A DNA stretch of 64,000 nt from an uncultured Gammaproteobacteria bacterium. Lineage in GTDB: Bacteria > Patescibacteriota > Patescibacteriia > Magasanikbacterales > JBBTXJ01. The notes under the pieces were generated by a model. It had not been told where the DNA came from. It did not search any database and was given only the letters and a program-made list of their open reading frames with translations. Positions 3,846-62,309 of this stretch are shown here, one piece after another (position 1 is the first letter of the stretch; each line of letters starts with the position of its first letter). The DNA lies in contig CAZSVL010000003.1 of NCBI GenBank assembly GCA_964610305.1, forward strand, positions 13,122 through 77,121, given 5' to 3'. The position numbers and the translations under genes were made by a program.

Positions 3846-4061
3846 ATGCAAATCAAAAAGCAAGACAAAATGTGCTACTACTGTGTTAAGAACTCAGAGA
3901 TAGCGCCAACTGACGCCGTAACACTGCAACGGTTTATTTCTTCATATAAAAAAATTCAGCCTAGAAAAAGAAGCGGTTTGTGCGCCCTTCATCAGCGCAA
4001 GGTTTCTAAGGCCATCAAGCAGGCCAGAATAATGGGTCTTCTTCCGTTTGTTGCAGAGTAG
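3846..4061 (+). CDS. rpsR: 30S ribosomal protein S18
   Basis: CYYC...LQRFISSYKKIQPRKRSGLCALHQRKVSKAIKQARIMGLLPF matches the S18 consensus. Confidence 0.9.
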   Translation: MQIKKQDKMCYYCVKNSEIAPTDAVTLQRFISSYKKIQPRKRSGLCALHQRKVSKAIKQARIMGLLPFVAE

Positions 4062-4065
4062 CTTG

Positions 4066-4223
4066 TAGTATAGAGTATTCAGTATTGAGTATTCAGCGGG
4101 TGCCCGCTTGTCATTCTGAACTTGATTCAGAATCCAGTTAGAAATAGAGCGCGTTTTATATTTCTGCCTGGATCCCGGATCAAGTCCGGGATGACGCTTA
4201 AACGTACTGAATACTCTATACTC
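4066..4223. repeat. GTCAT-family twin-hairpin repeat element (core 4110-4195) nested in longer outer inverted repeats
   Basis: GTCATTCTGAACTTGATTCAGAATCCAG...CTGGATCCCGGATCAAGTCCGGGATGAC, flanked by tagtatagagtattcagta / tactgaatactctatactc. Confidence 0.8.
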
Positions 4224-4227
4224 AAAA

Positions 4228-4788
4228 ATGGCATCCTACGAGATTTTAAAAAAGGGGACCGTTATCAAATATAAAGGTGCTCCTCATGTGGTGGTTTTTC
4301 ACCAGCATTATAAACCGGGCAAAGGCCCGGCTTTTGTGCGCACAAAGCTTAAGAATCTTATATCTGGAAACGTAATAGAGAATAATTTTAAGGGCGGAGA
4401 TCAGGTGGAGCCGGTAGAGGTAGAGCGTCAGAATTTGCAGTACTTATATCCGGGAGAGGGCGAGTATAATTTTATGCGTACCGATACCTATGAGCAAATA
4501 TCAATTCCGGCAGATGTAGTAGGGGATCAAATGCAATGGCTTAAAGAGAGTCAAGAGGTAATTGGACTTTTTTTTGAAGGATCAGTTGTTTCCGTAGATA
4601 TTCCAACCAAGTTAACGCTAAAAGTTGTCTCTGCTGGAGAGGGTGTTCGCGGTGATACGGCATCCGGAACCGCCACAAAAGAGGTGGAGCTAGAGACGGG
4701 AACAAAAATTCAGGTCCCACTTTTTATAAAACAAGGTCAGTCCGTTGTAATAAACACGGAAACAGGAAGCTACGCAGAAAGAGTGTAG
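4228..4788 (+). CDS. efp: Elongation factor P
   Basis: 186 aa. KGG...ATKEVELETGTKIQVPLFIKQGQSVVINTETGSYAERV matches the EF-P C-terminus. Confidence 0.9.
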   Translation: MASYEILKKGTVIKYKGAPHVVVFHQHYKPGKGPAFVRTKLKNLISGNVIENNFKGGDQVEPVEVERQNLQYLYPGEGEYNFMRTDTYEQISIPADVVGDQMQWLKESQEVIGLFFEGSVVSVDIPTKLTLKVVSAGEGVRGDTASGTATKEVELETGTKIQVPLFIKQGQSVVINTETGSYAERV

Positions 4789-4846
4789 CGGAGGGCGCAA
4801 GACAACTCGGTTTGCTAGGATGCAGTTTGTGCGTCCTTTTTTTATC

Positions 4847-4875
4847 TTGACAAATGTTTGTAACTAGGCTATAGT
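4847..4875 (+). promoter_or_regulatory. Consensus sigma70-type promoter (TTGACA, 17-bp spacer, TATAGT)
   Basis: TTGACA at 4847-4852 and TATAGT at 4870-4875. GGAGG ribosome-binding site before the ATG at 4908. Confidence 0.6.
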
Positions 4876-4907
4876 CTACTACGCACATTTACAACACGGA
4901 GGTCTCC

Positions 4908-6134
4908 ATGCGCAAGAGAAAATTGTGCACTAAATACGGCGAAATTCAGGTTCCAGCAAAGTCGCTGCACGGAAGCGCTGTGCTGTATTCTGAGCAGACG
5001 GTGGAGATTCTTGCTGGCACAAAAATGCGTGACGGCAAGGTTCTTAAAAAGTCAGTTACACTGCTCCCAGGAACCATCTTCATGCCACGGCTTCACAAGC
5101 CGGAGACAGGAAGGCCGTACTTTGTCTGGCAGATTTACGCTCAAGGAATCTTTGATGCTCTGCGCGGAATTATGCATATTCAGGCTGGCTACGATAGTCA
5201 GTATGAGCAGCGATACGGCCGGATGGGTGAGGTGCAGACCATAGAAGACGTGCGGTCAGCTCTGAACACCATTTTGGGATGGCTTGCCACTTACAGCAGC
5301 CTCTCTGATTTAGAGAAAGATGCGCTTGGTGAGTTTATCTCTGGAAAAACAGAGCTTGTGGGTAATGTTCAGGATGAGCATAAGCGCAGAGCGCTAGAGC
5401 GGATGATTGCCGCAAGCAAAGAAAAAGATTCTTCTGGGAAGTCTAACCCTAGTGCGCGTATGGCGCGCAGTGTTGGTGCCCGTAGAGATCTGCATGAGCG
5501 TCTGTCTCTGATCAGATTCATTGAGCCGCGGATTGGTACGCGCGCAGTTGCTTTGGCAACAGAAGACGCACGGATCCGCAGGATTTACGCGGACGCGTAC
5601 AAAAGATTTAGTGCCATTGAAAACTCAATCGGCAATGCAATTGCTGGTATGGGAGATAGCGCCAAGCGCTTTGCTGTTACGGTGATGGGAATGGTGGAAG
5701 ATCTGCAGACTATCAAGGTTGGACCCTATCCATCGCATGTGCAGAGGATCGTTAAAGATGCTCAGCAGGTTGGTAACTATATTGCAGCAAACCAAAAGAA
5801 GAAGGCACTTGCTGTACGCAAGAGGATCCTGGAGTCTCTGCGTTGCAAGAGAGCTCGCTGGCAGCTAGAGGGTATCCGTACGCCGCTTTCAATTGCAGCG
5901 GCAGGAAAAAAGAAAGATAGAGAAGCGGCTGTTGCGGCGGGGACACACAAGGTTTTTGCTGCAAGGTTGCAGGATTTCTCTGGAAGAATGGCAACCATTG
6001 CGGACGAGGATTTCAGCAAGAAAGTGAGATCCTTTGCGGTGGTGCGTTGTGATAAAGCGGCATCGCTCTTGATGGATCTGGAAGATTTTAGGGGTGCCAA
6101 GACCCTCGTCGGAGAAGCTTGTAACAGACTCTAG
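4908..6134 (+). CDS. Hypothetical protein (408 aa, Arg/Ala-rich, no recognisable domain)
   Basis: Long ORF with strong promoter and RBS. Composition is GC-richer than neighbouring genes. Confidence 0.6.
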   Translation: MRKRKLCTKYGEIQVPAKSLHGSAVLYSEQTVEILAGTKMRDGKVLKKSVTLLPGTIFMPRLHKPETGRPYFVWQIYAQGIFDALRGIMHIQAGYDSQYEQRYGRMGEVQTIEDVRSALNTILGWLATYSSLSDLEKDALGEFISGKTELVGNVQDEHKRRALERMIAASKEKDSSGKSNPSARMARSVGARRDLHERLSLIRFIEPRIGTRAVALATEDARIRRIYADAYKRFSAIENSIGNAIAGMGDSAKRFAVTVMGMVEDLQTIKVGPYPSHVQRIVKDAQQVGNYIAANQKKKALAVRKRILESLRCKRARWQLEGIRTPLSIAAAGKKKDREAAVAAGTHKVFAARLQDFSGRMATIADEDFSKKVRSFAVVRCDKAASLLMDLEDFRGAKTLVGEACNRL

Positions 6135-11909: not shown

Positions 11910-12228
11910 GTGCTTCCCCTTTCTGTGATTGTCTACTGTCTGTCCTACGGGCCGACCATGTGGTGGACATGATCGGCCGCTAGGACAGACTAGCGGGAAA
12001 AATTAGTCAGTAACAGTGGTCCTGATGCCCGAAGGCACCAGGGGACACTCGTTACTCACAAGTGTCTTAACCGGAAGGGCACGGCGCAACTGCAGCACGT
12101 TCTGGAAACCAGACCGCCACAGCATGGGTACGTCGCGCACAACCGAAATCATTGGCATTGGTAAACCCTCCCGCAAGCAGGAGGAGTGACGCGTCCAAAG
12201 CATGGATTGGGCGCGATACTCCTCTTCC

Positions 12229-12316
12229 GTCATTCTGAACTTGATTCAGAATCTCCCAAAGAAAACGGTTTAAGAAAAACGTCTTCTGTGAGATCCCAGA
12301 TCTTCTCTGGGATGAC
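12229..12316. repeat. GTCAT-family twin-hairpin repeat element
   Basis: GTCATTCTGAACTTGATTCAGAATCTC...GAGATCCCAGATCTTCTCTGGGATGAC. Confidence 0.8.
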
Positions 12317-12491
12317 AGAGATAAGGGGTCTACCAACAAACAGCAGGCATGATGGCATCGTTGGAGAAAGGAGGATGGGTGTTGCAAAGAACGCACCATC
12401 ATAACCTGCTGACTGTTGGTAGTAAGTTGTAAAAGATCCACACGCCCGCCGGTGATCGACGGGGTGTGGGGTCTTGGCTGTTTGTTGGGTT

Positions 12492-12872
12492 TTAGCTGCA
12501 ACGCTCTAGGCGAATTCGCGGATTCGTTCTTTCCGAGCGGGTGAACACGAATCGCAACTGCCCTTCCCAGGCCTTGTTGATACGAGCGATGAGCTCATGG
12601 AATTCCTGCAGATGCAGACCACTCGCGTGAACAGGATAAGTGGTAGACTCATCGCCGATCAGCGTGGTTTGGATAATGAGCAGCAGCGACGCGCCCAAAC
12701 GAGCGCGCACAAATGCCATCAGATCCAGCCGATCCACCTTGCGGCAGAAGTGCTCGCTGATCCGGTTGAGCTCCTGGTCCATAAGCAAGCTTTGCTCGCG
12801 GTACCAGATTCGGAAGGCCTGCGCCTCCTGACGTGGCACTGTGAATGAGATTTCGTTTACTCCTCCGTGCAT
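12492..12872 (-). CDS. Hypothetical protein (uncertain)
   Basis: ORF in a GC-rich island. Start taken at MHGGVNEISF. No family recognised. Confidence 0.3.
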   Translation of the reverse strand: MHGGVNEISFTVPRQEAQAFRIWYREQSLLMDQELNRISEHFCRKVDRLDLMAFVRARLGASLLLIIQTTLIGDESTTYPVHASGLHLQEFHELIARINKAWEGQLRFVFTRSERTNPRIRLERCS

Positions 12873-13142
12873 ACTCCCTCCCAAGAGTTCGTTTTCAAAC
12901 AAAAACAGTCACAGATCGTCCTCGGTAGCATGGCTGGCGCTTACCTTTTTTGTATATAGGTTTATATGCGACAGGTGCCCCCTCGGACGATCTCTGACTG
13001 CTTTAAAATTGTTAACGTTCTTTGCAACGACGATATCATTATAATACCGCAACTGCACACTATAGCACACTTTTGTCATTTTGTCAAGAGGAGATGCCTA
13101 TAATTTGGCTTATTTTAGCGCGATTTTGCATTTTGCTTCAGG

Positions 13143-13309
13143 GGTTAGGGGTTAGCGTGTAGGGTGTAGTGGTATCACCTTGTCATTCTGAACTTGATTC
13201 AGAATCTAGGAAGAAATTGAGCACGTCTTACTGTTCTAGTGGATCCTGAATCAAGTTCAGGATGATGCTATAGAGATTCTACACCCTACACCCTACGCCC
13301 TAACCACTA
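13143..13309. repeat. GTCAT-family twin-hairpin element (core 13192-13268) nested in ~30-bp outer inverted repeats
   Basis: Outer ggttaggggttagcgtgtagggtgtagtgg / ctacaccctacaccctacgccctaaccactag. Core GTCATTCTGAACTTGATTCAGAATC...GGATCCTGAATCAAGTTCAGGATGATGC. Confidence 0.8.
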
Positions 13310-13525: not shown

Positions 13526-13563
13526 GAGATCCCGGATATTTGCTTCGCAAATTTCGGGATGAC
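13526..13563. repeat. Solo half-copy of the GTCAT-family element (GAGATCCCGGAT...TTCGGGATGAC)
   Basis: Matches the right-arm hairpin of the family. Confidence 0.6.
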
Positions 13564-20737: not shown

Positions 20738-20746
20738 TTTAAAAAA

Positions 20747-20797
20747 CCACACACAAGCAGGGGCATCTTAAAAACGATGTGGCTCTTTGTGTGTGGT
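20747..20797 (-). terminator. Large-loop terminator hairpin downstream of gene 20806-21795. A near-identical copy lies at 21868-21918 downstream of the paralogue.
   Basis: ACCACACACAAG...CTTTGTGTGTGGT with 12-bp stems. The minus-strand sense is followed by TTTTTT. Confidence 0.6.
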
Positions 20798-20805
20798 AGC
20801 TTATC

Positions 20806-21795
20806 TTAAGTCTTCATTTTGTCCTCTGCTGGTACATAGGCGTCAACCGTCTGCGCTAGCTGTTTTACGTCTGGCGCAATTACGGCTAGTTCTATGCCGG
20901 CTTGCTCAAAGAGGCGCTTGTGGTCCTCGTCCAGGCTTTCCACTCTCATGGCCAGCTCTGCGGTAGACTCTACAATAGCCTCAATGATTTGCGTCTCTAG
21001 ATCTTGGCATGAACTTGCAATGCGCTGCGTGCGCTTGATGAGCTCCAGGTCTGTCAGCGGTTTGCGTACCTCATCTACGGCTGCAAAGCATGCATTAAAG
21101 AACGCGTTTACTTTTGCCTTGTGGTCTAGCAGCGCAGTACAGTGCGTCTCAAGCTTTTCAATGACGGGCTTGAGTTCTGAGAGAGCCTGCTTTAAAGGCT
21201 CTGGATGTTGGCTGATTGAAATGCGTGCAATCAGATCTGAACGCAAGTTGCGCGCATCTTTTAGTTTTGAATCAACAGTATCAAGTGTCTTTCCAAAGTA
21301 CGTGTGTCGGCCAATCACCGCATTTCTTTCTTGAAGAATCCGCAGCTCAAGGTATGCCGGGATTGTGTCGGCAGGTATGGGGCGGAGTTTTCTACTATTT
21401 TCTTCAAGATGCCCTGAGATCATTCCCTCTATTGCGGCAGATCTGCCAAAGCTAAACAGGAGGGATGCGAACGTCCAACAAACTATGTTGAAAATGGTGG
21501 AAGAGGTTGATATTTCGCCCGCTAACACAAGACTCATCAGGACGCCAAGCGTTGCAAAGATTCCTCCAAAAAATACCAAGCTAACCTGATCTTTTATGCC
21601 GTGCTGTTCTGTGCACCCATTTTCCAGATGAATACTTTTTGCCTTGTAGAAAATAGCCTTGCGGCGTTTTCTCTTTGAGACCTTGGCCAGCTTGTCAAAG
21701 TTTTGATCAATTTCAATGCTAGGTACGCGCATCTGCGTAGAGCCCGGCATCCACGCGGGCAGCTTTGCCCTCATCTTGCTCATCCACGCCTTCAT
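20806..21795 (-). CDS. Hypothetical membrane protein (two TM helices followed by ~200-aa coiled-coil region), paralogue A
   Basis: 329 aa. Shares N-terminal LPAWMPGST and C-terminal FEQAGIELAVIAPDVKQLAQTVDAYVPAEDKM with the adjacent gene. Confidence 0.6.
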   Translation of the reverse strand: MKAWMSKMRAKLPAWMPGSTQMRVPSIEIDQNFDKLAKVSKRKRRKAIFYKAKSIHLENGCTEQHGIKDQVSLVFFGGIFATLGVLMSLVLAGEISTSSTIFNIVCWTFASLLFSFGRSAAIEGMISGHLEENSRKLRPIPADTIPAYLELRILQERNAVIGRHTYFGKTLDTVDSKLKDARNLRSDLIARISISQHPEPLKQALSELKPVIEKLETHCTALLDHKAKVNAFFNACFAAVDEVRKPLTDLELIKRTQRIASSCQDLETQIIEAIVESTAELAMRVESLDEDHKRLFEQAGIELAVIAPDVKQLAQTVDAYVPAEDKMKT

Positions 21796-21867
21796 GGTTT
21801 CTCCCCTGTAAGCATTGTTCTGTCACGAGCATAGCATAGGGGTTGGCTTGCGTCAAGTATTAAAAAA

Positions 21868-21918
21868 CCACACACAAGCCGCCGTATCTTAGGAACGAGC
21901 CGGTTCTTTGTGTGTGGT
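21868..21918 (-). terminator. Second copy of the large-loop terminator hairpin
   Basis: ACCACACACAAGccgccgtatcttaggaacgagccggttCTTTGTGTGTGGT. Confidence 0.6.
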
Positions 21919-21923
21919 CTATC

Positions 21924-22898
21924 TTAATGAACAGTCTTGCCAGCCATGTGGTCTTCTGCTGGTACAAAATCCGCTACGGTTTGCTCTAGTAGCGCCACTG
22001 TTGGTTGAGCTGCTGCAATTTCAATCCCGGTTTGTTCAAACATGCGGTTGCATTCTTCTCTGATTTCATCAAAGGTTAGCTGTAGCTGGATAGCGGTTTG
22101 TGCAATGATGTGGTCTGTTTGTGTTTGCAGCCGCCCTGTTTTGTTTGCGAGCGTATCAAGTTTTGCAATGGCGGCATGATCTGCAATGGGATCCTTTAAG
22201 CCATCTATGCGATTCTTGCTCAGCTCCAGGAACGCCTTTAGCTTTGCCTCGTGCATTTCTAAGTCGGTTCTTTTTTGTTCAAGTCCCGCTATGAGCTCTT
22301 CCGCTCTGCTATGCGCCTCAAGTAAATAGCCGGGCGCGCTATTTCCTTGACGTGCGTACGCGTTAATTCTTCCCAAGAAGTAAGACTCTATTGGTCTGAG
22401 TTCTCGCAAAAGACGGTTGATATCACGGTGGTTTTCTTTAAAACCATCACCAAGCAGATTATCCACCCGCATTTTTAGCTTTTCAAACAGAAATTGAGGG
22501 ATGATATCTTGAGGTGTCTGTTTTGTGGTTGGTTGCTTGCATTTGTGCCAGAGTCGAGAGAACGTCTCTTTTGTGCCCGATAGTGTTCCGCCCGCCATTA
22601 GGAGTGCTCCGATAAAGCTGATGAGCGAAGTCGGGCTGTATCCAGGATTTCTGACAATACCGAGCACGCAAAAGTAGAAAAATATAACACCAATGCTGAT
22701 CAAGAAGATGTTTGATACAAATTCTCTCAACGTGATCACGTTGCAGTCACAGTTTTGCTTTGCAGCAATTTTCACGTAATTGCGAGCGATGATCGCTAGT
22801 TGATCTACCGGCAAATGCGCACAATTCTCAAGGTCTGCCTTTGTTGAGCCGGGTATCCACAGGGGCAAGTGTAATCTGATCCACGTGAGCAGTTTCAC
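21924..22898 (-). CDS. Hypothetical membrane protein, paralogue B of 20806-21795. Probable GTG start, set by alignment with paralogue A.
   Basis: LPLWIPGSTK...FEQTGIEIAAAQPTVALLEQTVADFVPAEDHM. Tandem duplication. Confidence 0.55.
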   Translation of the reverse strand: MKLLTWIRLHLPLWIPGSTKADLENCAHLPVDQLAIIARNYVKIAAKQNCDCNVITLREFVSNIFLISIGVIFFYFCVLGIVRNPGYSPTSLISFIGALLMAGGTLSGTKETFSRLWHKCKQPTTKQTPQDIIPQFLFEKLKMRVDNLLGDGFKENHRDINRLLRELRPIESYFLGRINAYARQGNSAPGYLLEAHSRAEELIAGLEQKRTDLEMHEAKLKAFLELSKNRIDGLKDPIADHAAIAKLDTLANKTGRLQTQTDHIIAQTAIQLQLTFDEIREECNRMFEQTGIEIAAAQPTVALLEQTVADFVPAEDHMAGKTVH

Positions 22899-23002
22899 GG
22901 TTTTCTCCTTTGTAAGGATCTGAAGGAACCATAGCAAAAGCCCACGCCCTTGTCAATATATTTTTCTGTGGTAAGGTGTGTGAGCACACAAAAGGAGGCA
23001 AT

Positions 23003-24910: not shown

Positions 24911-24982
24911 GTCATTGCGAGCGAAGCGAAGCAATCCCGTTGCTAACTTGTTGGGATTGCTTCGCCTCCGGCTCGCAATGAC
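24911..24982. repeat. GTCAT-family long-hairpin repeat (subtype B)
   Basis: GTCATTGCGAGCGAAGCGAAGCAATCCC...GGGATTGCTTCGCCTCCGGCTCGCAATGAC. Confidence 0.8.
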
Positions 24983-25733: not shown

Positions 25734-25754
25734 CGGCTGCATGTAAGAGAGTCT

Positions 25755-26175
25755 GCTGTAGGCTTTAGGCTGTATGCTGTAAGATTGTTCTATGGAGAAT
25801 TTTAAAAAATTGGAGGTTTGGCAGCTTGCGCGAGGGTTGGTTGGGCAAGTCTATAGAATAACGGCGCATTTTCCTGCGGAGGAGCGATTTGGTTTAGTAT
25901 CTCAGATGAGGCGTGCTGCAATATCGGTTATGGCAAATATTGCTGAAGGATCAAAACGACAGACTGTCAAAGACAGAACCCATTTTCATGTAATAGCAGA
26001 CACATCTTTGGAGGAGCTTAAATGCTACTTTGTGGTATCATACGATTTAGACTATATAGGCAGGCAGGAGGGCGAAGTCATGACGCAGATGGCACGAAAA
26101 ATTGGAGGAAAACTAACAAGATTAACGCAAAGTCTCAAGCCGCGGGCATAAAGCATACAGCCTAAAGCCTACAGC
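25755..26175 (+). mobile_element. Four-helix-bundle-protein cassette flanked by perfect 24-bp inverted repeats (IVS-like element)
   Basis: gctgtaggctttaggctgtatgct at 25755-25778 and its exact reverse complement at 26152-26175 bracket the ORF. Confidence 0.6.
25792..26151 (+). CDS. Four helix bundle protein (the family encoded in 23S rRNA intervening sequences)
   Basis: LEVWQLARGLVGQVYRITAHFPAEERFGLVSQMRRAAISVMANIAEG matches the TIGR02436-type pattern. Confidence 0.8.
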   Translation: MENFKKLEVWQLARGLVGQVYRITAHFPAEERFGLVSQMRRAAISVMANIAEGSKRQTVKDRTHFHVIADTSLEELKCYFVVSYDLDYIGRQEGEVMTQMARKIGGKLTRLTQSLKPRA

Positions 26176-26184
26176 ATTATTCTT

Positions 26185-27540: not shown

Positions 27541-28857
27541 TTATGTGTTAACCTCCGTTGATAGATTAGCATTTTTTTTGTAGGAAATAAAGATGAGTGA
27601 AAGCAGAAGCCAAAAAATAACGGCAAGATCATTTTTAAAATAAGGGACATCCACCAGACCGTGAATTAAAATAGTCAACACTGCCGCAAGAAGCGGATAG
27701 TTTGGCGTCCGCATAATAGCCCAATAAAAAAGCAGGATAAAGGCAAGGACGCCAAGTAGTCCCAGCTCAACCCAAAAGTTAAGCAGTATATTGTGCGGGT
27801 ACTCAAACACCTCAATCCATTTGTCTATCCTATACCTATATATAGACTCCTTATAACTAGAGAGCCCAGTTCCTAAGAGTGGATGGTCGGAGATAAGTTC
27901 ACTAGCTTCCGCCCACATATCCAGCCGCAATCCGCCGCTGTAGTCTGCAAAAATAAGCTCTTGCTTTATGTTGGATAATCCAGGCGTAAGCATGATAGCG
28001 GCAGTAATTCCCAAGCCCGTTGCTCCAACAAAGAATCTCGTTTTTTTATGTATGACCCCAATTATAAAACCGGCTCCCGCAAGTGCTACAAGTGCGCCCG
28101 TTGTTTTTGCCCAGATGATGGCAAGAAAGCTTGCTGAAGTAACAAGTAACAAGTAACAAGTAACAAGTACGTCCTTCCACCTTTTTCTTGTGTGTGAGAA
28201 GTTTTTTATGGTTCTTGTTGCCTCGTCAATAAAAAGGGGTATGAGCGGTGCCATAAAAAGCCCAATGGCATTAGGAAATCCCCAAACGCTGGTAACGCGT
28301 CTTGTTTGCTCTGCTGCCCAATACGGATTAGGAATCCACACCCCCGTGAATTTTTGGTAGATGGCAATGATTGCAGTAGCTAAGACCGAAAGTGATAATG
28401 AAAAGATAATTGCGGGGCGATCAGTTTTTTTAAATGTAGTTATAAAAATGAAGAATAATGCTACCGGTTCTATAATATACGCTTTCCAAAGTCCGGCAGC
28501 AGCTCTTGTATCTGGCGCAATGATGAGCGATAGGGTTCCGGCTATAAGTAGCAGGGCGATCCCAAGCGCTAGCACCCATTCTTGTGTCATTCTGAGCGAA
28601 GCGAAGAATCCCGTCAAGCGACTAACTTGCTTTTTAAACGGGATTCTTCGCCTTTGGCTCAGAATGACTGCTTTTATCAGCCACATGACTGCAACAATCC
28701 AAATCATTACTTCAAGCAATGTGCTCGGCAAAGGCCCAATACTAAACCTAATAAGATACACAGGAAGCAACGCAATTAAAACAAGAAGCGCCCACCTAAG
28801 GCGGACGAGCGCGAGTGCTGCAAAGCCGATTGTAAAAGCTATAACAAGGCCGGTCAT
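27541..28857 (-). CDS. O-antigen ligase / Wzy-like polytopic membrane protein
   Basis: 438 aa, >10 TM helices, Wzy_C-like central loop. Contains an in-frame repeat element and a heptanucleotide tandem repeat. Confidence 0.6.
   Translation of the reverse strand: MTGLVIAFTIGFAALALVRLRWALLVLIALLPVYLIRFSIGPLPSTLLEVMIWIVAVMWLIKAVILSQRRRIPFKKQVSRLTGFFASLRMTQEWVLALGIALLLIAGTLSLIIAPDTRAAAGLWKAYIIEPVALFFIFITTFKKTDRPAIIFSLSLSVLATAIIAIYQKFTGVWIPNPYWAAEQTRRVTSVWGFPNAIGLFMAPLIPLFIDEATRTIKNFSHTRKRWKDVLVTCYLLLVTSASFLAIIWAKTTGALVALAGAGFIIGVIHKKTRFFVGATGLGITAAIMLTPGLSNIKQELIFADYSGGLRLDMWAEASELISDHPLLGTGLSSYKESIYRYRIDKWIEVFEYPHNILLNFWVELGLLGVLAFILLFYWAIMRTPNYPLLAAVLTILIHGLVDVPYFKNDLAVIFWLLLSLIFISYKKNANLSTEVNT
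28139..28171. repeat. Heptanucleotide tandem repeat (AGTAACA)x4 plus a partial copy, inside the Wzy-like CDS
   Basis: agtaacaagtaacaagtaacaagtaacaagtac. Confidence 0.9.
28586..28668. repeat. GTCAT-family long-hairpin repeat (subtype B) lying in-frame inside the CDS 27541-28857
   Basis: GTCATTCTGAGCGAAGCGAAGAATCCCGT...ACGGGATTCTTCGCCTTTGGCTCAGAATGAC. Translated as ...KAVILSQRRRIPFKKQVSRLTGFFASLRMTQ... Confidence 0.8.
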
Positions 28858-28858
28858 A

Positions 28859-30304
28859 TCAACGAGTAGAGATCAAAAGCCTAAGATCTCTATACGATAT
28901 ACCTTTTACGGCTATCATGGCAAGAGTGTAGACCGCTCCTCCGATAAAAACTAAAAGTACAACATGCAGATCGCGGATAAGCCACAGAGATCCTGCCATT
29001 AAGCCACTTGCCGCCACTGATTTAAAAAGTGGCGTGAGCGTTATTCTAGCGCGCGTTACTTTTTTAACATAAAGCCACAAAAGCGCGCCAGCAAGCAGCT
29101 CAGAGAAAACCGTCATCCACGCAGCGCCCATATAGCCATAGCGTGGAATGAAGATAAGATAGCCAACAAGCGTGATAATGGCAGTAAGAAGATAGATCCA
29201 AATAGTTTTTCTTTGGTGGTTGATGGCAACAATGGTGTGACCAAAGAGCGCTCCTAAAAATCCTCCCATAAGAGCGATAAGTAAGACTTGGACAATCGGG
29301 CCGGATGCAATAAACTCTTCTCCTGCGATGAGTTTCATAATAGGAGATGCTAAAAGTGCCCCGCCAACAAGAACAGGAATAGCTACCACAGACAGGGCAG
29401 AGAATGATCTGCTCACCAGAGATGAGAAATTTGCTTTATCGGTACTGGTCCAGCTCTTAGCAAGTAGCGGGACCATCAAGCCCATAAAGATAATGGGTAT
29501 GGCGGTGGTAACATCCATTATTCTGTATGCAGCTCCATACAGCCCCACTTCTGTTTGAGGTCTCACCAAAGATAAAATGAAAACGTCTGCTCTTAAATAG
29601 ATAAGATTAAAAGCAATGGAGATGGCAATCGGCCAGCTTTTTTTGAAAATAATTGACCAGATGTTTTTTTCAAAAGAAAATCCAAGCGGGACAATGCGAT
29701 GCGCTCTTGTCGCAAGCACTATGGTCTGGGCGATGTTTCCAATCACCACCGCAGCCATTACCGGCATAAAGCCAAAGTCTTTGTAGACCACCAAGAAAAC
29801 ACCGGCAAACAGTGCGGCTCTCTGCGCCACTTCAGCTAGGCCAATCCAGTGAGCTTTAAGATGTTTTTGAAAAATTCCCGTGAGGATTTGATTTTCTGCA
29901 ATGAGGAAAAATGCTACAGAGGTAAGGACAACTGCCCATTTAATTTCTGTGGTGTACGGAAAAAGCCAAATGAGTGCTGCGGCTAATCCGTACGCTACGG
30001 CAGCAGTGAGGGTTCTAAATCCAAGCAGGTTACGGACTATGGTTTTTTCAGAATAATCCTTAAGCTCGCCGAGCATTTGCCCGGTAACAATAACCAAACC
30101 AAAATCTATTAAAATGCCAACAATCTGCAAAAATGCCACCGCCGTAACATACCAACCAAATTGCTCTTGCCCTAAATAGCGGGTCATCATGGCAATGGTA
30201 GCAATACCCAAAAACGTCCCGACGATTTTTCCGGAGAAATGAGTAAAGGTATTGCGCACTACGCTAGCGGTTGCCATGCACAGAGCATAGCACAGAGCGC
30301 GCAA
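28859..30304 (-). CDS. Polysaccharide/O-antigen flippase (Wzx, MOP superfamily)
   Basis: 481 aa, ~12-14 TM helices, typical Wzx topology. Adjacent to the Wzy-like gene. Confidence 0.7.
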   Translation of the reverse strand: MRALCYALCMATASVVRNTFTHFSGKIVGTFLGIATIAMMTRYLGQEQFGWYVTAVAFLQIVGILIDFGLVIVTGQMLGELKDYSEKTIVRNLLGFRTLTAAVAYGLAAALIWLFPYTTEIKWAVVLTSVAFFLIAENQILTGIFQKHLKAHWIGLAEVAQRAALFAGVFLVVYKDFGFMPVMAAVVIGNIAQTIVLATRAHRIVPLGFSFEKNIWSIIFKKSWPIAISIAFNLIYLRADVFILSLVRPQTEVGLYGAAYRIMDVTTAIPIIFMGLMVPLLAKSWTSTDKANFSSLVSRSFSALSVVAIPVLVGGALLASPIMKLIAGEEFIASGPIVQVLLIALMGGFLGALFGHTIVAINHQRKTIWIYLLTAIITLVGYLIFIPRYGYMGAAWMTVFSELLAGALLWLYVKKVTRARITLTPLFKSVAASGLMAGSLWLIRDLHVVLLVFIGGAVYTLAMIAVKGISYRDLRLLISTR

Positions 30305-32104: not shown

Positions 32105-34222
32105 ATGAGAATGGAGAGGCACAATGCATCGGCTTTGCGAGAGCAGCGACAAGCGGCTCGTAGCAAACGGCGCAAGCACGTAGGATTTTTCTCTAGTATT
32201 TTTATTTCTGGCATTTTGGTGGTGGTAAGCGCTAGCCTTTTGCGCATTGGGGTAGACGGAAGCGTTCCTGAGCTGCCTAGCTCTCATCTGGATCACGTGG
32301 TACAAAACGATGGGCCCCGCTATGACCTTTCTAAATTTAAGCTAGAGATGGCTAATTTAGCAAAGTCAATTTTTGGCGTAGAAGATGTCCATGCCGCAGG
32401 ATACGCGGCAAGAGTTATAGCTCAGCCAGCTCCATTGTCTCTAAAGCCAGGCGAGAAAAGTGAGATTGTTGTAAAGCTTGAGAACACCGGCTCTCTGAGA
32501 TGGCGCACGCCCGCAACAGGATCACGTTATGCCAGCCTTTATACTTACGCGCCAAAATATCACCTGAGTAGGCTAGAGGATAAAAGATGGCACAGAAGAG
32601 ATCAGCCTGGAGTTTTGCAGGCGCAGACAGAGGTGGGAGAGACAGGGATCATAAAAATTCCGATCACTGCTCCGCTTGAGCCGGGTGTATACAAGGATAC
32701 TTTTCAGATGGCCATAGAGGACACGGCTTGGGTGAGTGGTGGAGGTGTTAAAGTGGTAGTGAACGTAGAAGATGTGCCGGTGGATATTGTTGTTCCTAAA
32801 GTAGTGTCATTGCGATCGCCGCAGAGCGAGAAGCAATCCCGTCATAAGGAGGACCAGTTGCAAAGCGACGAGATCGCCACACCTCTTTCAGAGGTTCGCG
32901 ATGACGAAGCTATAGATGACGTGGTCCATAAAGCCTTACTGTTGGTGCGCTCGCACAAACGAATCCGCAAACCAGGCGGAACGGATGTGCTCATGCGATT
33001 TGGTTTTAAAAACACCGGAGAGAGCTCGTGGTTTGAGCGAGGCCTCAAGACCGGGCAGGTGGCCATAGCCGCACAAAAAAAAGATGGCAGTTTTGCTCAC
33101 CAAAGTTGGCTTTCAAAAAATGATGTGGTGAAATTAGCCGCCGGCACCGTGGCGCCCGGAGACACAGAATTTTTTACGTTTTCCGTAAAAACGCCGGCCA
33201 CCAAAGGTGAATATGATATGAACTTGCATTTGGTGGTTGACGGCAGGCCGGTAGAAGGTGGCATCATTAGCCTGCCCGTTTTTGTAACCAGCAACGCAAA
33301 GAGCAGTAGTCAGCCTGTTTCTTTTGAAGGAGAAGTTGAGCTCTTAGATGAGCCGATTATCAGAGTGGGACTTTTTAAAACAGAAGAGCCCGTGGAGTTT
33401 GTATCTTCTTACGAGTATGTGGTTAAAGATGTTAATGGAAAAGCGCTGCATATTATCCCAAAGAATACACAATCAGTTATACATTATAAAAACGGTTCGT
33501 ACATTTTTTACTCAAAAGGAAAGACGCTTAAAGGATCGCATCACTACCGGCTGGAGCCAAAAAACGCCGGCGTCGATCCCTACTTTACTATAAGTAATCA
33601 TGAGGAGCGTCCTAAGTGGAATCCCGGCCTTAATTACAATATTTTCAGGGGTACATTTGAGCTGCGCTACTCAGAAAAGAATGAAAAGGTGTGGGTCATA
33701 AATGAGCTTTCTATGGAGCCGTATTTGTGGGGGCTAGCTGAGGTAAGCAATAATACACCAGAGGAATTTCAAAAGGCAATGGCCGTGGCAGAGAGAACAT
33801 ATGCATATGTGCAGCTACGGGCGGGGACAAAACATGCGGACAGGAATTTTCATGTAAGCGCTTCTCAAGGGGATCAAGTATACAGAGGAAAAAATAGAGA
33901 GCCAAGCTTTCCTAACGTGGTAGATGCGGTAAAAGAAACACTTGGGCAGATGGTGACCTATAATAATGACGCAGTAGTGACGCCATATTTTGCTCGCTCA
34001 AACGGAAAGACAAAATCATACAAAAGTGTATGGGGAGGAGCTGAAAAACCGTGGCTTGTGCCCGTAAAAACGGGGTATGATAGCGGGAAGAGCAAATGGG
34101 GACATGGCGTGGGTATGAGTCAGCGCGATGCTACTCATAGGGCAGATAAAGAAGATATAGAATATAAGGAATTGCTTGCTTACTACTACACAGACACAAA
34201 GGTCAGAAAAGTATATAAATAG
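32105..34222 (+). CDS. SpoIID/LytB domain-containing protein with N-terminal TM anchor and repeated beta-sandwich domains
   Basis: C-terminal MEPYLWGLAEV...AVAERTYAYVQL...GHGVGMSQRDA matches SpoIID/LytB. Confidence 0.8.
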   Translation: MRMERHNASALREQRQAARSKRRKHVGFFSSIFISGILVVVSASLLRIGVDGSVPELPSSHLDHVVQNDGPRYDLSKFKLEMANLAKSIFGVEDVHAAGYAARVIAQPAPLSLKPGEKSEIVVKLENTGSLRWRTPATGSRYASLYTYAPKYHLSRLEDKRWHRRDQPGVLQAQTEVGETGIIKIPITAPLEPGVYKDTFQMAIEDTAWVSGGGVKVVVNVEDVPVDIVVPKVVSLRSPQSEKQSRHKEDQLQSDEIATPLSEVRDDEAIDDVVHKALLLVRSHKRIRKPGGTDVLMRFGFKNTGESSWFERGLKTGQVAIAAQKKDGSFAHQSWLSKNDVVKLAAGTVAPGDTEFFTFSVKTPATKGEYDMNLHLVVDGRPVEGGIISLPVFVTSNAKSSSQPVSFEGEVELLDEPIIRVGLFKTEEPVEFVSSYEYVVKDVNGKALHIIPKNTQSVIHYKNGSYIFYSKGKTLKGSHHYRLEPKNAGVDPYFTISNHEERPKWNPGLNYNIFRGTFELRYSEKNEKVWVINELSMEPYLWGLAEVSNNTPEEFQKAMAVAERTYAYVQLRAGTKHADRNFHVSASQGDQVYRGKNREPSFPNVVDAVKETLGQMVTYNNDAVVTPYFARSNGKTKSYKSVWGGAEKPWLVPVKTGYDSGKSKWGHGVGMSQRDATHRADKEDIEYKELLAYYYTDTKVRKVYK

Positions 34223-45991: not shown

Positions 45992-46112
45992 AGACTAAAC
46001 TTGTGCATCTAAGTTGTAAAACAGTACAGGCCACTGTACAGATGAGGGCCGACGCTCCGGTCGACCCCCCGACTTCGACTCTGTCGAACGTCGGGGCTAA
46101 GGGCCCAGACTA
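45981..46112. repeat. 17-bp direct repeats (tRNA-Ala positions -6 to 11) flanking a 50-nt twin-hairpin insert (46046-95) plus ~49 nt. The upstream copy is a tRNA-Ala 5' pseudo-fragment with the insert after position 11.
   Basis: gctaagggcccagacta at 45981-45997 and 46096-46112. Between them: GGGCCCTTAGC[insert]TCATCTG... Confidence 0.7.
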
Positions 46113-46175
46113 TACGTAAACGCGGTCATAGTATGCCACAGAGCGCTAAATTAGTCAACACGGTTATGGTATAAT

Positions 46176-55464: not shown

Positions 55465-55503
55465 ATAATTAAAAAAACGCGGCAGTCCGCGTTTTTTTGT
55501 TTG

Positions 55504-55586
55504 TCATCGCGAGGAGCATAGCGACGTGGCGATCCCGTGGCTAAGCAACGGGATTGCCACGGGGGCATGCGCCCCCTCGCAATGAC
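55504..55586. repeat. GTCAT-family long-hairpin repeat (subtype B variant)
   Basis: GTCATCGCGAGGAGCATAGCGACGTGGCGATCCCGTGG...CCACGGGGGCATGCGCCCCCTCGCAATGAC. Preceded by the bidirectional terminator ACGCGGcagtCCGCGT. Confidence 0.7.
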
Positions 55587-58192: not shown

Positions 58193-58222
58193 GAAAATGC
58201 CCCAGGTCTTACGCTGGGGCGG

Positions 58223-58585
58223 GGTGGAGGCGCCGGGAGTCGAACCCGGGTCCAGAAAGGTTGTTCATCTGCGTCTACGTGTGTATTCCTTGCATGGTTG
58301 CCTACGCTGCTTTGCCCAAGGACAGGCGGCTGCGCAGCCGGTTCATTGCTGTGTTTAAGACATGCTCCGCAATTCCATTAGAGCAGTACCGAGCCTACAT
58401 AAGTTTCCCTAATCCCGCCTATAGGCGAGCGAGCTTTGGGGTCGCATGCTGCGTACTAGGCAGCGAGCGCGACGGACTCAGCGTCAGTATTGGCGTCTGA
58501 GTTGCGCCCGGGGGATCAAAGGGTCCCAGACATCCCTTACACGCAGCAGGTAGCGTCCGCTCCCTGTCGAAACCAGTTCGCCCCC
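58223..58585 (-). ncRNA. ssrA: tmRNA (SsrA), tag peptide ANTDAESVALAA
   Basis: 5' GGGGGCGAACTGGTTTCGACAGGGA. tRNA-like 3' end GGGTTCGACTCCCGGCGCCTCCACC. In-frame GCC AAT ACT GAC GCT GAG TCC GTC GCG CTC GCT GCC TAG. Confidence 0.85.
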
Positions 58586-58598
58586 GTAAGGGTTTGTG

Positions 58599-58967
58599 TT
58601 AGTCAATGTCCAGATCATACTCGTCCCAGTAGGGGTCTCCGTCTAGATCTGCACATTCATCAGAGTGCGAAACGGCACAGCCTTCATCGCAGAAGTCCAT
58701 GTACCAATCGCAGCCTTCATCATAGCAGGATCTGCAATCAGCGAGTGCTTTGATGAAGTACTCGTTTTCGTCACAGAGCTCCCAGCTTTCCACTGTAGAG
58801 AGCTTGACCGATCCGAGGGTTGGTAGATCTTCAAAGGCCGCATCAAAGAGACCTTCCACGATCTCGTTTTTTGCGTCAAGGAGCGGCCGACTATTCCGGT
58901 GAAATGACATTGTTTCCCTTTTCAGTGAAAGAAGGACGATTAGCGCAGTATGAAGACAGTATAGCAC
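58599..58967 (-). CDS. Hypothetical acidic Cys-rich protein
   Basis: GC-rich ORF. The start may be the internal MSFHRN. Confidence 0.35.
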   Translation of the reverse strand: MLYCLHTALIVLLSLKRETMSFHRNSRPLLDAKNEIVEGLFDAAFEDLPTLGSVKLSTVESWELCDENEYFIKALADCRSCYDEGCDWYMDFCDEGCAVSHSDECADLDGDPYWDEYDLDID

Positions 58968-59073
58968 ATTTTGTACATTTTGTCAAGGGTAAAATGCCAC
59001 TTTATCTCTTATTTTAGCCAAATTTACGTAATAAAAAAACTGCCGTCTCCCGAAGGATCAGGCAGCGTGCACT

Positions 59074-61041: not shown

Positions 61042-61116
61042 TGCGCCCGGCGGGATTTGAACCCGCAACCACTGGATCCGGAGTCCAGCGCTCTACATCC
61101 ATTGAGCTACGGGCGT
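61042..61116 (-). tRNA. tRNA-Arg (anticodon CCG)
   Basis: ACGCCCG-TA-GCTC-AATGGATGTA-GAGC-G-CTGGA-CTCCGGA-TCCAG...GCGGG-TTCAAAT-CCCGC-CGGGCGC-A (A1-C72 mismatch). Confidence 0.7.
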
Positions 61117-61126
61117 TCAATGCTGA

Positions 61127-61181
61127 GGGCCGACGCTTTGGTCGCCCCCCCGACCCCTTCGGGCGTCGGGGCTACGGACGC
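61127..61181 (-). repeat. 44-nt twin-hairpin element (61127-61170) with an upstream pseudo-acceptor GCGTCCG-TAGC (61171-61181), duplicating the tRNA-Arg(CCG) 5' end
   Basis: RNA sense: GCGTCCG TAGC [CCCGACGCCCGAAGGGGTCGGGGGGGCGACCAAAGCGTCGGCCC] TCAGCATTGA ACGCCCGTAGC... Confidence 0.6.
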
Positions 61182-61186
61182 TTAAG

Positions 61187-61259
61187 TACGCCGTGAGGGA
61201 ATTGAACCCCCGACCCATGGATTAAAAGTCCAGTGCTCTACCTACTGAGCTAACAGCGC
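61187..61259 (-). tRNA. tRNA-Lys (anticodon TTT)
   Basis: GCGCTGT-TA-GCTC-AGTAGGTA-GAGC-A-CTGGA-CTTTTAA-TCCAT...GGGGG-TTCAATT-CCCTC-ACGGCGT-A. Confidence 0.7.
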
Positions 61260-61871: not shown

Positions 61872-61988
61872 AGCGGTAAGCCGGCCTCGAACCGACGACC
61901 CTCTGCTTGGAAGGCAGACGCTCTACCAACTGAGGACCGACGTTTCAGTCGGTCCCCCGACCCCTTTAGGCGTCGGGGCTATTACCGT
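61872..61988 (-). tRNA. tRNA-Gly (anticodon TCC) copy interrupted in the D-stem (between nt 11 and 12) by a 44-nt twin-hairpin element (61934-61977)
   Basis: ACGGTAA-TA-GC[CCCGACGCCTAAAGGGGTCGGGGGACCGACTGAAACGTCGGTCC]TC-AGTTGGTA-GAGC-G-TCTGC-CTTCCAA-GCAGA-GGGTC-GTCGG-TTCGAGG-CCGGC-TTACCGC-T. Confidence 0.55.
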
Positions 61989-61998
61989 AAATTTAAAG

Positions 61999-62234: not shown

Positions 62235-62309
62235 GTCATTGCGAGCAGTGTAACTGCGAAGCAATCCGGTATGTAAGCAACGGGATTGCTTCGCTTTGCT
62301 TGCAATGAC
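62235..62309. repeat. GTCAT-family long-hairpin repeat (subtype B) inside the tRNA array
   Basis: GTCATTGCGAGCAGTGTAACTGCGAAGCAATCC...GGGATTGCTTCGCTTTGCTTGCAATGAC. Confidence 0.8.

Follow-up and report, generated by a model that had tools for sequence, protein, structure and literature searches.

The CGTC repetitive extragenic palindromes (REPs) are small stem-loops, each possessing an unpaired tag (CGTC or TGTC), an 8-9-bp stem that starts with A-T pairs, a loop of 4-5 nt and a 3-nt tail that is mostly CCA; they occur predominantly as HH dimers, with the tags outside and spacers of 20-100 nt between the arms (PMC3733652). They have no linked transposase, and no enzyme that mobilizes them is known (PMC3733652). 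Some have also been described as Rickettsia palindromic elements (RPEs), CGTC-1 being RPE-6 and CGTC-4 being RPE-4 (Di Nocera et al. 2013, PMC3733652), and in-frame dimers of R. conorii encode peptides such as SFLRKQESI...LDSRFRGND in PBP1C, an antiporter subunit and MurB (PMC3733652). Here, we describe the analysis of a related element in a 64,000-nt stretch of DNA (hereafter the window; contig CAZSVL010000003.1, positions 13,122 to 77,121) from a member of the Patescibacteria, where an 83-nt hairpin at 28586-28668 lies in frame within a gene predicted to encode a polytopic membrane protein of the Wzy_C/O-antigen-ligase family. We consider it probable, at roughly 0.8, that a selfish, non-autonomous REP dimer inserted into a permissive loop of this protein, or replaced an earlier copy there, and that it persists as an in-phase allele in the only stop-free frame.

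The in-frame residence of this element is the RPE phenomenon, known from Rickettsia, in a new host group, and not a new kind of system. Among the RPEs (Ogata et al. 2000), in-frame palindromes occupy many unrelated genes, including those for antiporter subunits, AmpG and PBP1C, and there as here the host protein is intact and the bacterium is host-dependent, with a reduced genome. The residence in frame and the absence from an orthologue are matched at our locus; RPE-1, however, is a distinct and longer sequence family, and expression of RPE-bearing proteins has been shown in R. conorii, where that of the present insert is a prediction from the sequence. The doublet hairpin seen here is also that of the REPIN/RAYT system (Bertels & Rainey 2011), in which two inverted REPs and a spacer form one long hairpin (the REPIN) and the copies constitute a within-genome population. 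REPINs are GTAG-tagged, however, and tied to a single-copy gene, flanked by REPs, for a REP-associated tyrosine transposase (RAYT); here the tag is YGTC, and Pfam scans of 34 open reading frames (ORFs) of the window detected no transposase domain, whether of the Y1/HUH type or any other. Miniature inverted-repeat transposable elements within genes (the enterobacterial RU/ERIC and Correia elements; Delihas reviews) are likewise small non-autonomous palindromes that can be read through a host ORF, but they have terminal inverted repeats and a target-site duplication derived from insertion sequences, whereas the unit here is a tagged stem-loop and no direct repeat or target-site duplication flanks any of the 11 window copies checked. 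A literature search found nothing relevant on REPs in Patescibacteria or Parcubacteria, and a literature search with the motif GTCATTCTGAGC returned primer coincidences only.

The element consists of GTCATTCTGAGCGAAGCGAAGAATCCC, 27 nt and GGGATTCTTCGCCTTTGGCTCAGAATGAC. RNA from the coding (minus) strand is predicted to fold into a single near-perfect hairpin of -51.8 kcal/mol (z = -9.4; the shuffle mean is -20.5 +/- 3.3, and 0 of 200 shuffles are equally stable). Each arm of the hairpin also folds on itself, the YGTC tag being followed by a stem that starts A-T/T-A and bears a short loop, with a 3-nt tail rich in C at the end. The long hairpin of 83 nt is a composite, made up of two small tagged REP stem-loops in inverted orientation. 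The arm, and not the long hairpin, is the evolutionary unit, since heterodimers differ in their stems and agree in loop and tail; in the copy at 4110-4195 the arms are GTC-ATTCTGAA-CTTGA-TTCAGAAT-CCA and GTC-ATCCCGGA-CTTGA-TCCGGGAT-CCA. The 27-nt arm exceeds chance expectation (0 matches in 100 shuffles), and for the common 12-mer GTCATTSYGAVC, with at most one mismatch, the window has 13 occurrences where 2.6 would be expected. An earlier note on this DNA, made from the letters of the window, had placed an 83-bp hairpin within the coding sequence, and the fold, the family matches and the ORF coordinates bear this out. The note had also allowed that homologues might possess an equivalent loop of native sequence, its likeness to the repeat being coincidental. 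The loop is length-variable and often basic in homologues, as such a reading would have it, but an 83-nt palindrome of this stability, arms that match other copies in the window and the occurrence of the exact 26-nt arm in unrelated metagenome contigs refute coincidence.

Judged by its sequence characters, the element belongs to the CGTC-tagged REP superfamily in a variant form. The tags are TGTC on arm 1 and AGTC on arm 2 (the published definition accepts TGTC and CCTC variants), and of the 21 arm ends read in the window, 17 have T or C ahead of GTC, as counted from their flanks. Every arm has a stem that starts AT...AT; those of the in-gene arms comprise 9-10 positions, two of which form a tandem G.A, leaving 7-8 Watson-Crick pairs (seven in arm 1), and perfect stems of 8 bp are found in the copies at 4110, 12229, 13182 and 42298. 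The basal stem covaries across subtypes (ATTCT/AGAAT, ATTGC/GCAAT, ATCCC/GGGAT, ATCTC/GAGAT and ATCGC/GCGAT). Both in-gene arms end in the tail CCC, and among 228 loose candidate arms, a set that includes background, the commonest tails are CTC (29), CCA (25), CCC (17), TTT (13) and CTA (12), each expected about 3.6 times. The tags point outward across a 27-nt spacer, and ten dimers of this HH arrangement are present in the window. The in-gene loops, by contrast, are the triloops GAA and AAA, where the definition has 4-5 nt; loops of that length occur elsewhere in the window (CTTGA, GAAGA) and in two related contigs (GAAA in L070 and L086). Arms from related Patescibacteria encode LSFLRKQESI (L070) and LDSHFRGND (L086), and because these match, at the peptide level, SFLRKQESI and LDSRFRGND of R. 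conorii CGTC-1, the link to the CGTC family is direct. Shared with the published REPs, too, are a location mostly between unidirectional or convergent genes, a minority of copies in frame and encoding 20-37 residues, and the lack of a linked transposase. Two differences stand beside these likenesses: in many copies here the loop is replaced by a nested, GC-rich hairpin, and the host belongs to the Patescibacteria, or candidate phyla radiation (CPR), outside the five phyla listed in 2013 (PMC3733652).

For counting, arms were accepted only if they had an AT-start and a C[CT]N tail, because looser definitions lacked specificity: a generic detector of GTC followed by any stem-loop did no better than other trinucleotide tags and was dropped, and a 5-bp base-stem criterion had a background of about 10%. 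Within a biased 897-kb sample, 49 of the 91 strictly defined arms lie in ORFs that are open for at least 60 codons on both sides, indicating that in-frame REPs are common in this lineage. An Rfam scan of the whole window at gathering thresholds matched tRNAs, transfer-messenger RNA (tmRNA) and a group I intron, and assigned no family to any hairpin. The fold energies of the two strands differ inconsistently, and a suspected G.T wobble asymmetry of the sense strand was dropped.

The host ORF, of 438 aa, is uninterrupted by stops across the hairpin, as the earlier note had stated. The element begins with codon V64, at its first position, and ends at the second position of codon T91, covering 27 codons plus 2 nt; the residues 62-90 given before were right in location and off by 1-2 in numbering. 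Read-through translation, which the sequence makes likely, would yield the peptide VILSQRRRIPFKKQVSRLTGFFASLRMT, whose 28 residues include seven K/R and no D/E, and the structural model places this peptide between the second and third transmembrane (TM) helices, in accord with the basic inter-helix loop predicted earlier. Of the three coding-strand frames across the element, a single one is stop-free, and it is this one that the gene uses. The elements do not seem to have been built for translation: 17 open frames are observed among the window copies against 15.4 expected from shuffles, and this lack of enrichment argues for survivorship, not design. Nor is the charge of the insert a conserved property, since the net charge of eight orthologous inserts ranges from 0 to +7, the window and L003 being at +7 and the other six at only 0 to +3.

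The codon for M90 (ATG, 28590-28588) offers a different interpretation, in which the true start lies at the element's 3' end and the upstream 89 codons constitute a separate or decaying ORF; the earlier note had proposed as much, with a Met at about 28590. Such a start would fit the presence of an ATG at this position, and also a remark by Di Nocera et al. (2013, PMC3733652), according to whom many REPs that annotations place at the N-terminus of an ORF in fact lie outside genes. This ATG, however, is the reverse complement of the GTCAT end, is intrinsic to every copy of the element, and is buried in a 12-bp stem. Moreover, six residues upstream of the element (L31, Y34, R37, P44, L48 and E49) are invariant across 112 homologues, and the proportion of nonsynonymous differences (pN) over the first 62 residues is 0.28, compared with a synonymous proportion (pS) of 0.66-0.78 and a pN of 0.21-0.27 in the rest of the gene, a pattern of purifying selection. 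The same N-terminal part is confidently modelled within a WaaL-like fold as helices (2-35), a beta-hairpin (37-46) and a further helix (47-64), with a predicted local confidence (pLDDT) of 94-98. No stop separates it from the downstream part, and the annotated ATG lies 1 nt past the stop codon of the upstream flippase gene, a coupling preserved in orthologues, where the two genes likewise abut or overlap. Sequence and model together indicate that the whole ORF is used from the start beside the flippase stop; an internal start is rejected as very improbable, and the upstream helices are neither a separate nor a decayed ORF.

Comparison with homologues identifies the loop segment as extra. The host protein has 1260 matches, the closest of which, besides its own entry, is 66% identical, and the order flippase - Wzy_C - 124-148-aa ORF - VKOR - (MFS) - RuvC - YebC is kept in L001 and L084-L090 as far as each contig extends. 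Measured between the anchor motifs P.T.[LF]E and A.G.[WF]KA, the TM2-TM3 loop has a median length of 58 and a mode of 56 residues in 98 homologues; that of the window protein is 70, or 12-14 longer. The protein P0002 of contig L001, which is syntenic, is the sister of the window protein in a neighbour-joining tree and is 66-69% identical depending on the alignment, has 52 residues between the anchors and no GTCAT...ATGAC element there. Both tests suggested beforehand, alignment with homologues and comparison with a repeat-free orthologue, thus turned out in favour of an added segment. The L001 loop contains a weak palindrome, ATTTCTT...AAGAAAG, a possible arm relic that is too short to be told from chance.

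Seven other orthologues (L003, L004, L084, L085, L086, L089 and L090) possess a GTCAT...ATGAC dimer in the same loop, related to the window element and different from it. The six dimers measured, including that of the window, are 83, 106, 78, 105, 93 and 86 nt long (modulo 3: 2, 1, 0, 0, 0 and 2), yet all eight loop dimers, again with the window's, are read in phase. L088 has a single arm only, in phase and stop-free; L087 has a decayed remnant (GTTATTCGGAAT...AATTCCGTTAC), and in L084 the right arm is degraded. The boundaries of the dimers vary, lying 6-24 nt past the conserved TGG of TM2 and 7-12 nt ahead of the TGG of TM3. A second loop of the protein, at about residues 219-240 of the window protein, is occupied by dimers in P0004 and P0007-P0011 and, among homologues at greater distance, by single arms in L038, L070 and L080; in the window it holds none. 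The orthologues were found through intact proteins, and some ascertainment bias attaches to these counts.

These phase data bear on the proposal that the element is not translated, being excised from the mRNA or skipped by the ribosome in an intron- or bypass-like manner. Bypassed hairpin inserts exist elsewhere, for example in T4 gene 60 and as the yeast mitochondrial 'byps'; the window hairpin is a very stable one within a coding region, and a group I intron is present at another position of the window. Excision or bypass would free an insert from constraints of frame and stops, yet the eight dimers and the single arm are all in phase and stop-free (subject to the same ascertainment through intact proteins), and in the window copy both remaining sense frames have stops. 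In addition, no Rfam intron or ribozyme matches at the site, and the boundaries GCA/GTC ... ATG AC/A have no matching take-off and landing codons. We regard an untranslated element as most unlikely.

The predicted structure places the host among the Wzy_C/WaaL-fold proteins, as a putative ligase or polymerase. The protein matches Pfam Wzy_C (1.1e-20; 74.4 bits against a cut-off of 31.7), and its AlphaFold model (pLDDT 93.2, predicted TM-score 0.92) has as its sole significant structural neighbour the O-antigen ligase WaaL (7tpg_B; Foldseek E 1.1e-5, TM-score 0.58/0.62), which the sequence profile also matches (7tpg, 1.2e-5). Residues 61-90 are the only weak stretch ahead of the C-terminal region (pLDDT means of 82, 71 and 75 in blocks of 10 residues). 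The 12 long helices of the model were taken as transmembrane segments, and WaaL reportedly has an N-in/C-in topology, which we assume for the host protein. Under this assumption, loop 65-93 and loop 222-226 share one side of the membrane with the K/R-rich loops FK, HTRKR and HKKT, and a large acidic loop (302-356, with the conserved R311 and H355) lies on the opposite side; by the positive-inside rule, both permissive loops are probably cytoplasmic. At about residues 230-241, in the second permissive loop, the gene has a perfect heptanucleotide tandem repeat, AAGTAAC x 4.7 (28137-28169), that is missing from the L001 orthologue; since the unit is not a multiple of three and the gene is one for surface polysaccharide, such a repeat could turn it on and off through slipped-strand events.

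We propose that a CGTC-type REP dimer, REPIN-like in architecture, would have landed in the TM2-TM3 loop of this Wzy_C/WaaL-type protein or replaced a copy there. By analogy with REPIN/RAYT, it might have moved as hairpin single-stranded DNA acted upon by a trans-acting enzyme. The insert would survive because the net change in length keeps the reading frame, because the sole stop-free sense frame is the one in use, and because the 28 extra residues would fall in a variable, probably cytoplasmic loop, away from the conserved periplasmic catalytic region. The repeat would thereby supply a passenger peptide and no new start, stop or domain, and the insert is presumed neutral.

Several observations weigh against this account. 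The in-gene copy departs from the published definition of CGTC REPs, having 3-nt loops and tandem G.A pairs as opposed to stems of 8-9 bp and loops of 4-5 nt. The nearest non-self sequence is only 66% identical, so that the original boundaries of the insertion are not recoverable. The window loop is just 18 residues longer than that of L001 despite an 83-nt element, and this shortfall in sequence indicates that the event was not a clean insertion or that a deletion came after it. With no mobilizing transposase in the 34 window ORFs scanned, mobility is something we infer. Finally, an ancient neutral palindrome should have decayed, because synonymous sites between the orthologues are saturated (pS 0.66-0.84), and the persistence of near-perfect hairpins in several of them is not explained by the pure neutrality of an old insert.

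This last point is also the starting point for the view that the hairpin is selected, or repeatedly re-installed by a site-preferring mechanism, and is functional and truly domesticated, for example as an RNA duplex tuning the translation or decay of the flippase-Wzy operon or as a useful cytoplasmic linker. Despite the saturation, the folds of seven full dimers from this loop have z-scores of -3.8 to -10, and their nested apical hairpins differ among orthologues, each being self-complementary. Element similarity also contradicts the host tree: the copies of L086 and L090 are 81% identical, compared with 61-66% between L086 and its closer hosts L085 and L004, and the window copy is nearer to the paralogue at 24911 in the same window (74%) than to the copies at the orthologous site (58-65%). 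The structure is dispensable, however, since L001 lacks it, L087 retains a remnant, L088 one arm, and L084 has a degraded right arm. Nor does the peptide, with its net charge of 0 to +7, have a consistent property at the protein level, and no strand asymmetry in fold energy points to an RNA role. Turnover in a mobile family, whose genomic pool would supply new copies by gene conversion or re-insertion, accounts for these data with no need of a function; it is the simplest account of both the persistence and the tree conflict, and is favoured because empty, half and decayed states also exist. We consider selection or site-preferring re-installation unlikely, and a tolerated, selfish REP dimer preferable. 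Of the "domesticated insertion" entertained in the earlier note, the frame-preserving insertion stands, given the element-free syntenic L001, the loop above the median length and the dispersed family; domestication is not demonstrated, the evidence being of tolerance.

At least ten further copies are present in the window, namely ten other dimers and at least one single arm (Table 1). Of the dimers, seven are intergenic, one is overlapped only by doubtful ORFs, and two, including that at 28586-28668, lie inside long ORFs. Some of the intergenic dimers separate unidirectional or convergent genes, others separate tRNA genes, and a long intergenic stretch also harbours this kind of element. The ORF at 12067-12501 (minus strand), which surrounds the copy at 12229, looks spurious and was left uncounted as a gene.

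Table 1. Coordinates and strands of the in-gene REP dimer, its parts, its host and neighbouring gene, and the other copies in the window
Feature	Coordinates	Strand	Remarks
REP dimer, tags outward (HH), 83-nt hairpin	28586..28668	-	predicted to be translated as V64-T91 of the Wzy_C protein
REP arm 1	28586..28612	+	(T)GTC tag, stem ATTCTGAGC/GCGAAGAAT, GAA loop, CCC tail
Inter-arm spacer, 27 nt	28613..28639		has CTAACTTG in common with the spacer of the paralogue 24911-24982
REP arm 2	28640..28668	-	(A)GTC tag, stem ATTCTGAGCC/GGCGAAGAAT, AAA loop, CCC tail
Host gene, polytopic Wzy_C/O-antigen-ligase-family protein, 438 aa	27541..28857	-	Pfam; predicted WaaL-like fold
Polysacc_synt (Wzx-type flippase) gene, upstream	28859..30304	-	stop codon 1 nt before the Wzy_C start
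Second in-frame REP dimer	32806..32905	+	in SpoIID-like ORF 32105-34222; encodes ..VSLRSPQSEKQSR...EIATPLSEVRDD.. at an inter-domain linker
Closest paralogue of the in-gene copy	24911..24982		74% identical; intergenic between two plus-strand genes
Heterodimer, intergenic	4110..4195		8-bp stems, 5-nt loop, CCA tail
Dimer	12229..12316		8-bp stems, 5-nt loops; overlapped by doubtful short ORFs only
Dimer, intergenic	13182..13265
Single REP arm	13526-13563	-
Dimer, intergenic	42298..42394		between convergent genes
Dimer, 112 nt	44597..44708		between two tRNA genes
Dimer, intergenic	55503..55586		between convergent genes
Dimer	62235..62309		between two tRNA genes of a tRNA cluster

The second in-frame dimer resides in a plus-strand ORF for a 705-aa SpoIID-domain protein, at the linker between Ig-like repeats. 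Orthologues of this protein have from 1 to about 7 arms; those of L085 and L086 have four and seven arms, respectively, at inter-domain linkers, including the linker that is occupied in the window. That the coding-region dimers of the Wzy_C TM2-TM3 loop and the SpoIID linkers are actively maintained or repeatedly re-installed at the same sites is a tentative and rather doubtful idea. If true, it would imply a mechanism of insertion or conversion with site preference, or a selected role at the RNA or DNA level inside operons, and the same mechanism might explain the identical 26-27-nt arms found in very different bacteria, of 60-70% GC.

More than 120 metagenome contigs contain the exact 26-27-nt arm GTCATT(GC/CT)GAGCGAAGCGAAG(C)AATCC; most have a GC content of 60-70% and, since the window has 47%, do not derive from organisms like that of the window. 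The 27-nt arm GTCATTGCGAGCGAAGCGAAGCAATCC is identical across more than 120 contigs, which come from metagenomes of soil, peat and water (L091-L170) and mostly have 60-70% GC; exactness of this degree between such different genomes is unusual for REPs. In one of them (L107, Ga0207055_1035), a 121-bp unit is repeated in tandem 8.8 times at 3908-4975 with 97% matches, each unit holding two arms of the same REP type.

The present locus extends in-frame insertion of the REP/RPE type to the Patescibacteria. For annotation it carries a warning, as peptides such as VILS..., ...LRMT, ...RND and ...RDD in CPR proteins are repeat-derived loops, neither native sequence nor new domains. In a WaaL-fold protein, two loops tolerate 10-40 extra residues, and the series of full, half, decayed and empty orthologous sites, discordant with the host tree, constitutes a compact natural data set on the turnover of CGTC REPs.

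Other repeats and putative insertions were observed in the window. Between the YebC and RuvC genes, at 25754-26176, lies a gene for a 119-aa '23S rRNA-intervening sequence protein' (PF05635, 4.8e-32), flanked by the two 28-nt halves of an inverted repeat, 96% complementary to each other (25754-25781 / 26149-26176); its position is occupied by a NUDIX gene in L001, and the gene with its inverted repeat resembles a small cassette that was inserted. Two copies of a 59-nt hairpin repeat, AAAAAACCACACACAAGC...CTTTGTGTGTGGT, which are 83% identical (20739-20797 and 21860-21918), each adjoin one of two neighbouring minus-strand ORFs of about 330 aa (20806-21795 and 21924-22937) that have no Pfam match. 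An intergenic repeat of about 70 nt, ACTATAGCACAYTTTT...TTTTGTCAAGRG..., occurs three times (13057-13126, 41568-41637 and 58956-59025) with 67-70% identity and could be a shared promoter or regulatory region. A GC-rich family, ..CTGAGGGCCGACGCTCCGGTCGGCCCCCCGACCCCTTCGGGCGTCGGGGCTAC.., unrelated to the GTCAT elements, has four copies (41118-41191, 46034-46113, 61115-61188 and 61922-61995), each beside tRNA genes. The group I intron (Rfam RF00028, 83.8 bits) is at 45617-45837 on the minus strand, near two tRNA genes (44719-44791 and 45919-45991). Between 60500 and 64000, about 27 tRNA genes are densely clustered, each on the minus strand, with the REP dimer at 62235-62309 between two of them, and a tmRNA gene is located at 58222-58585.

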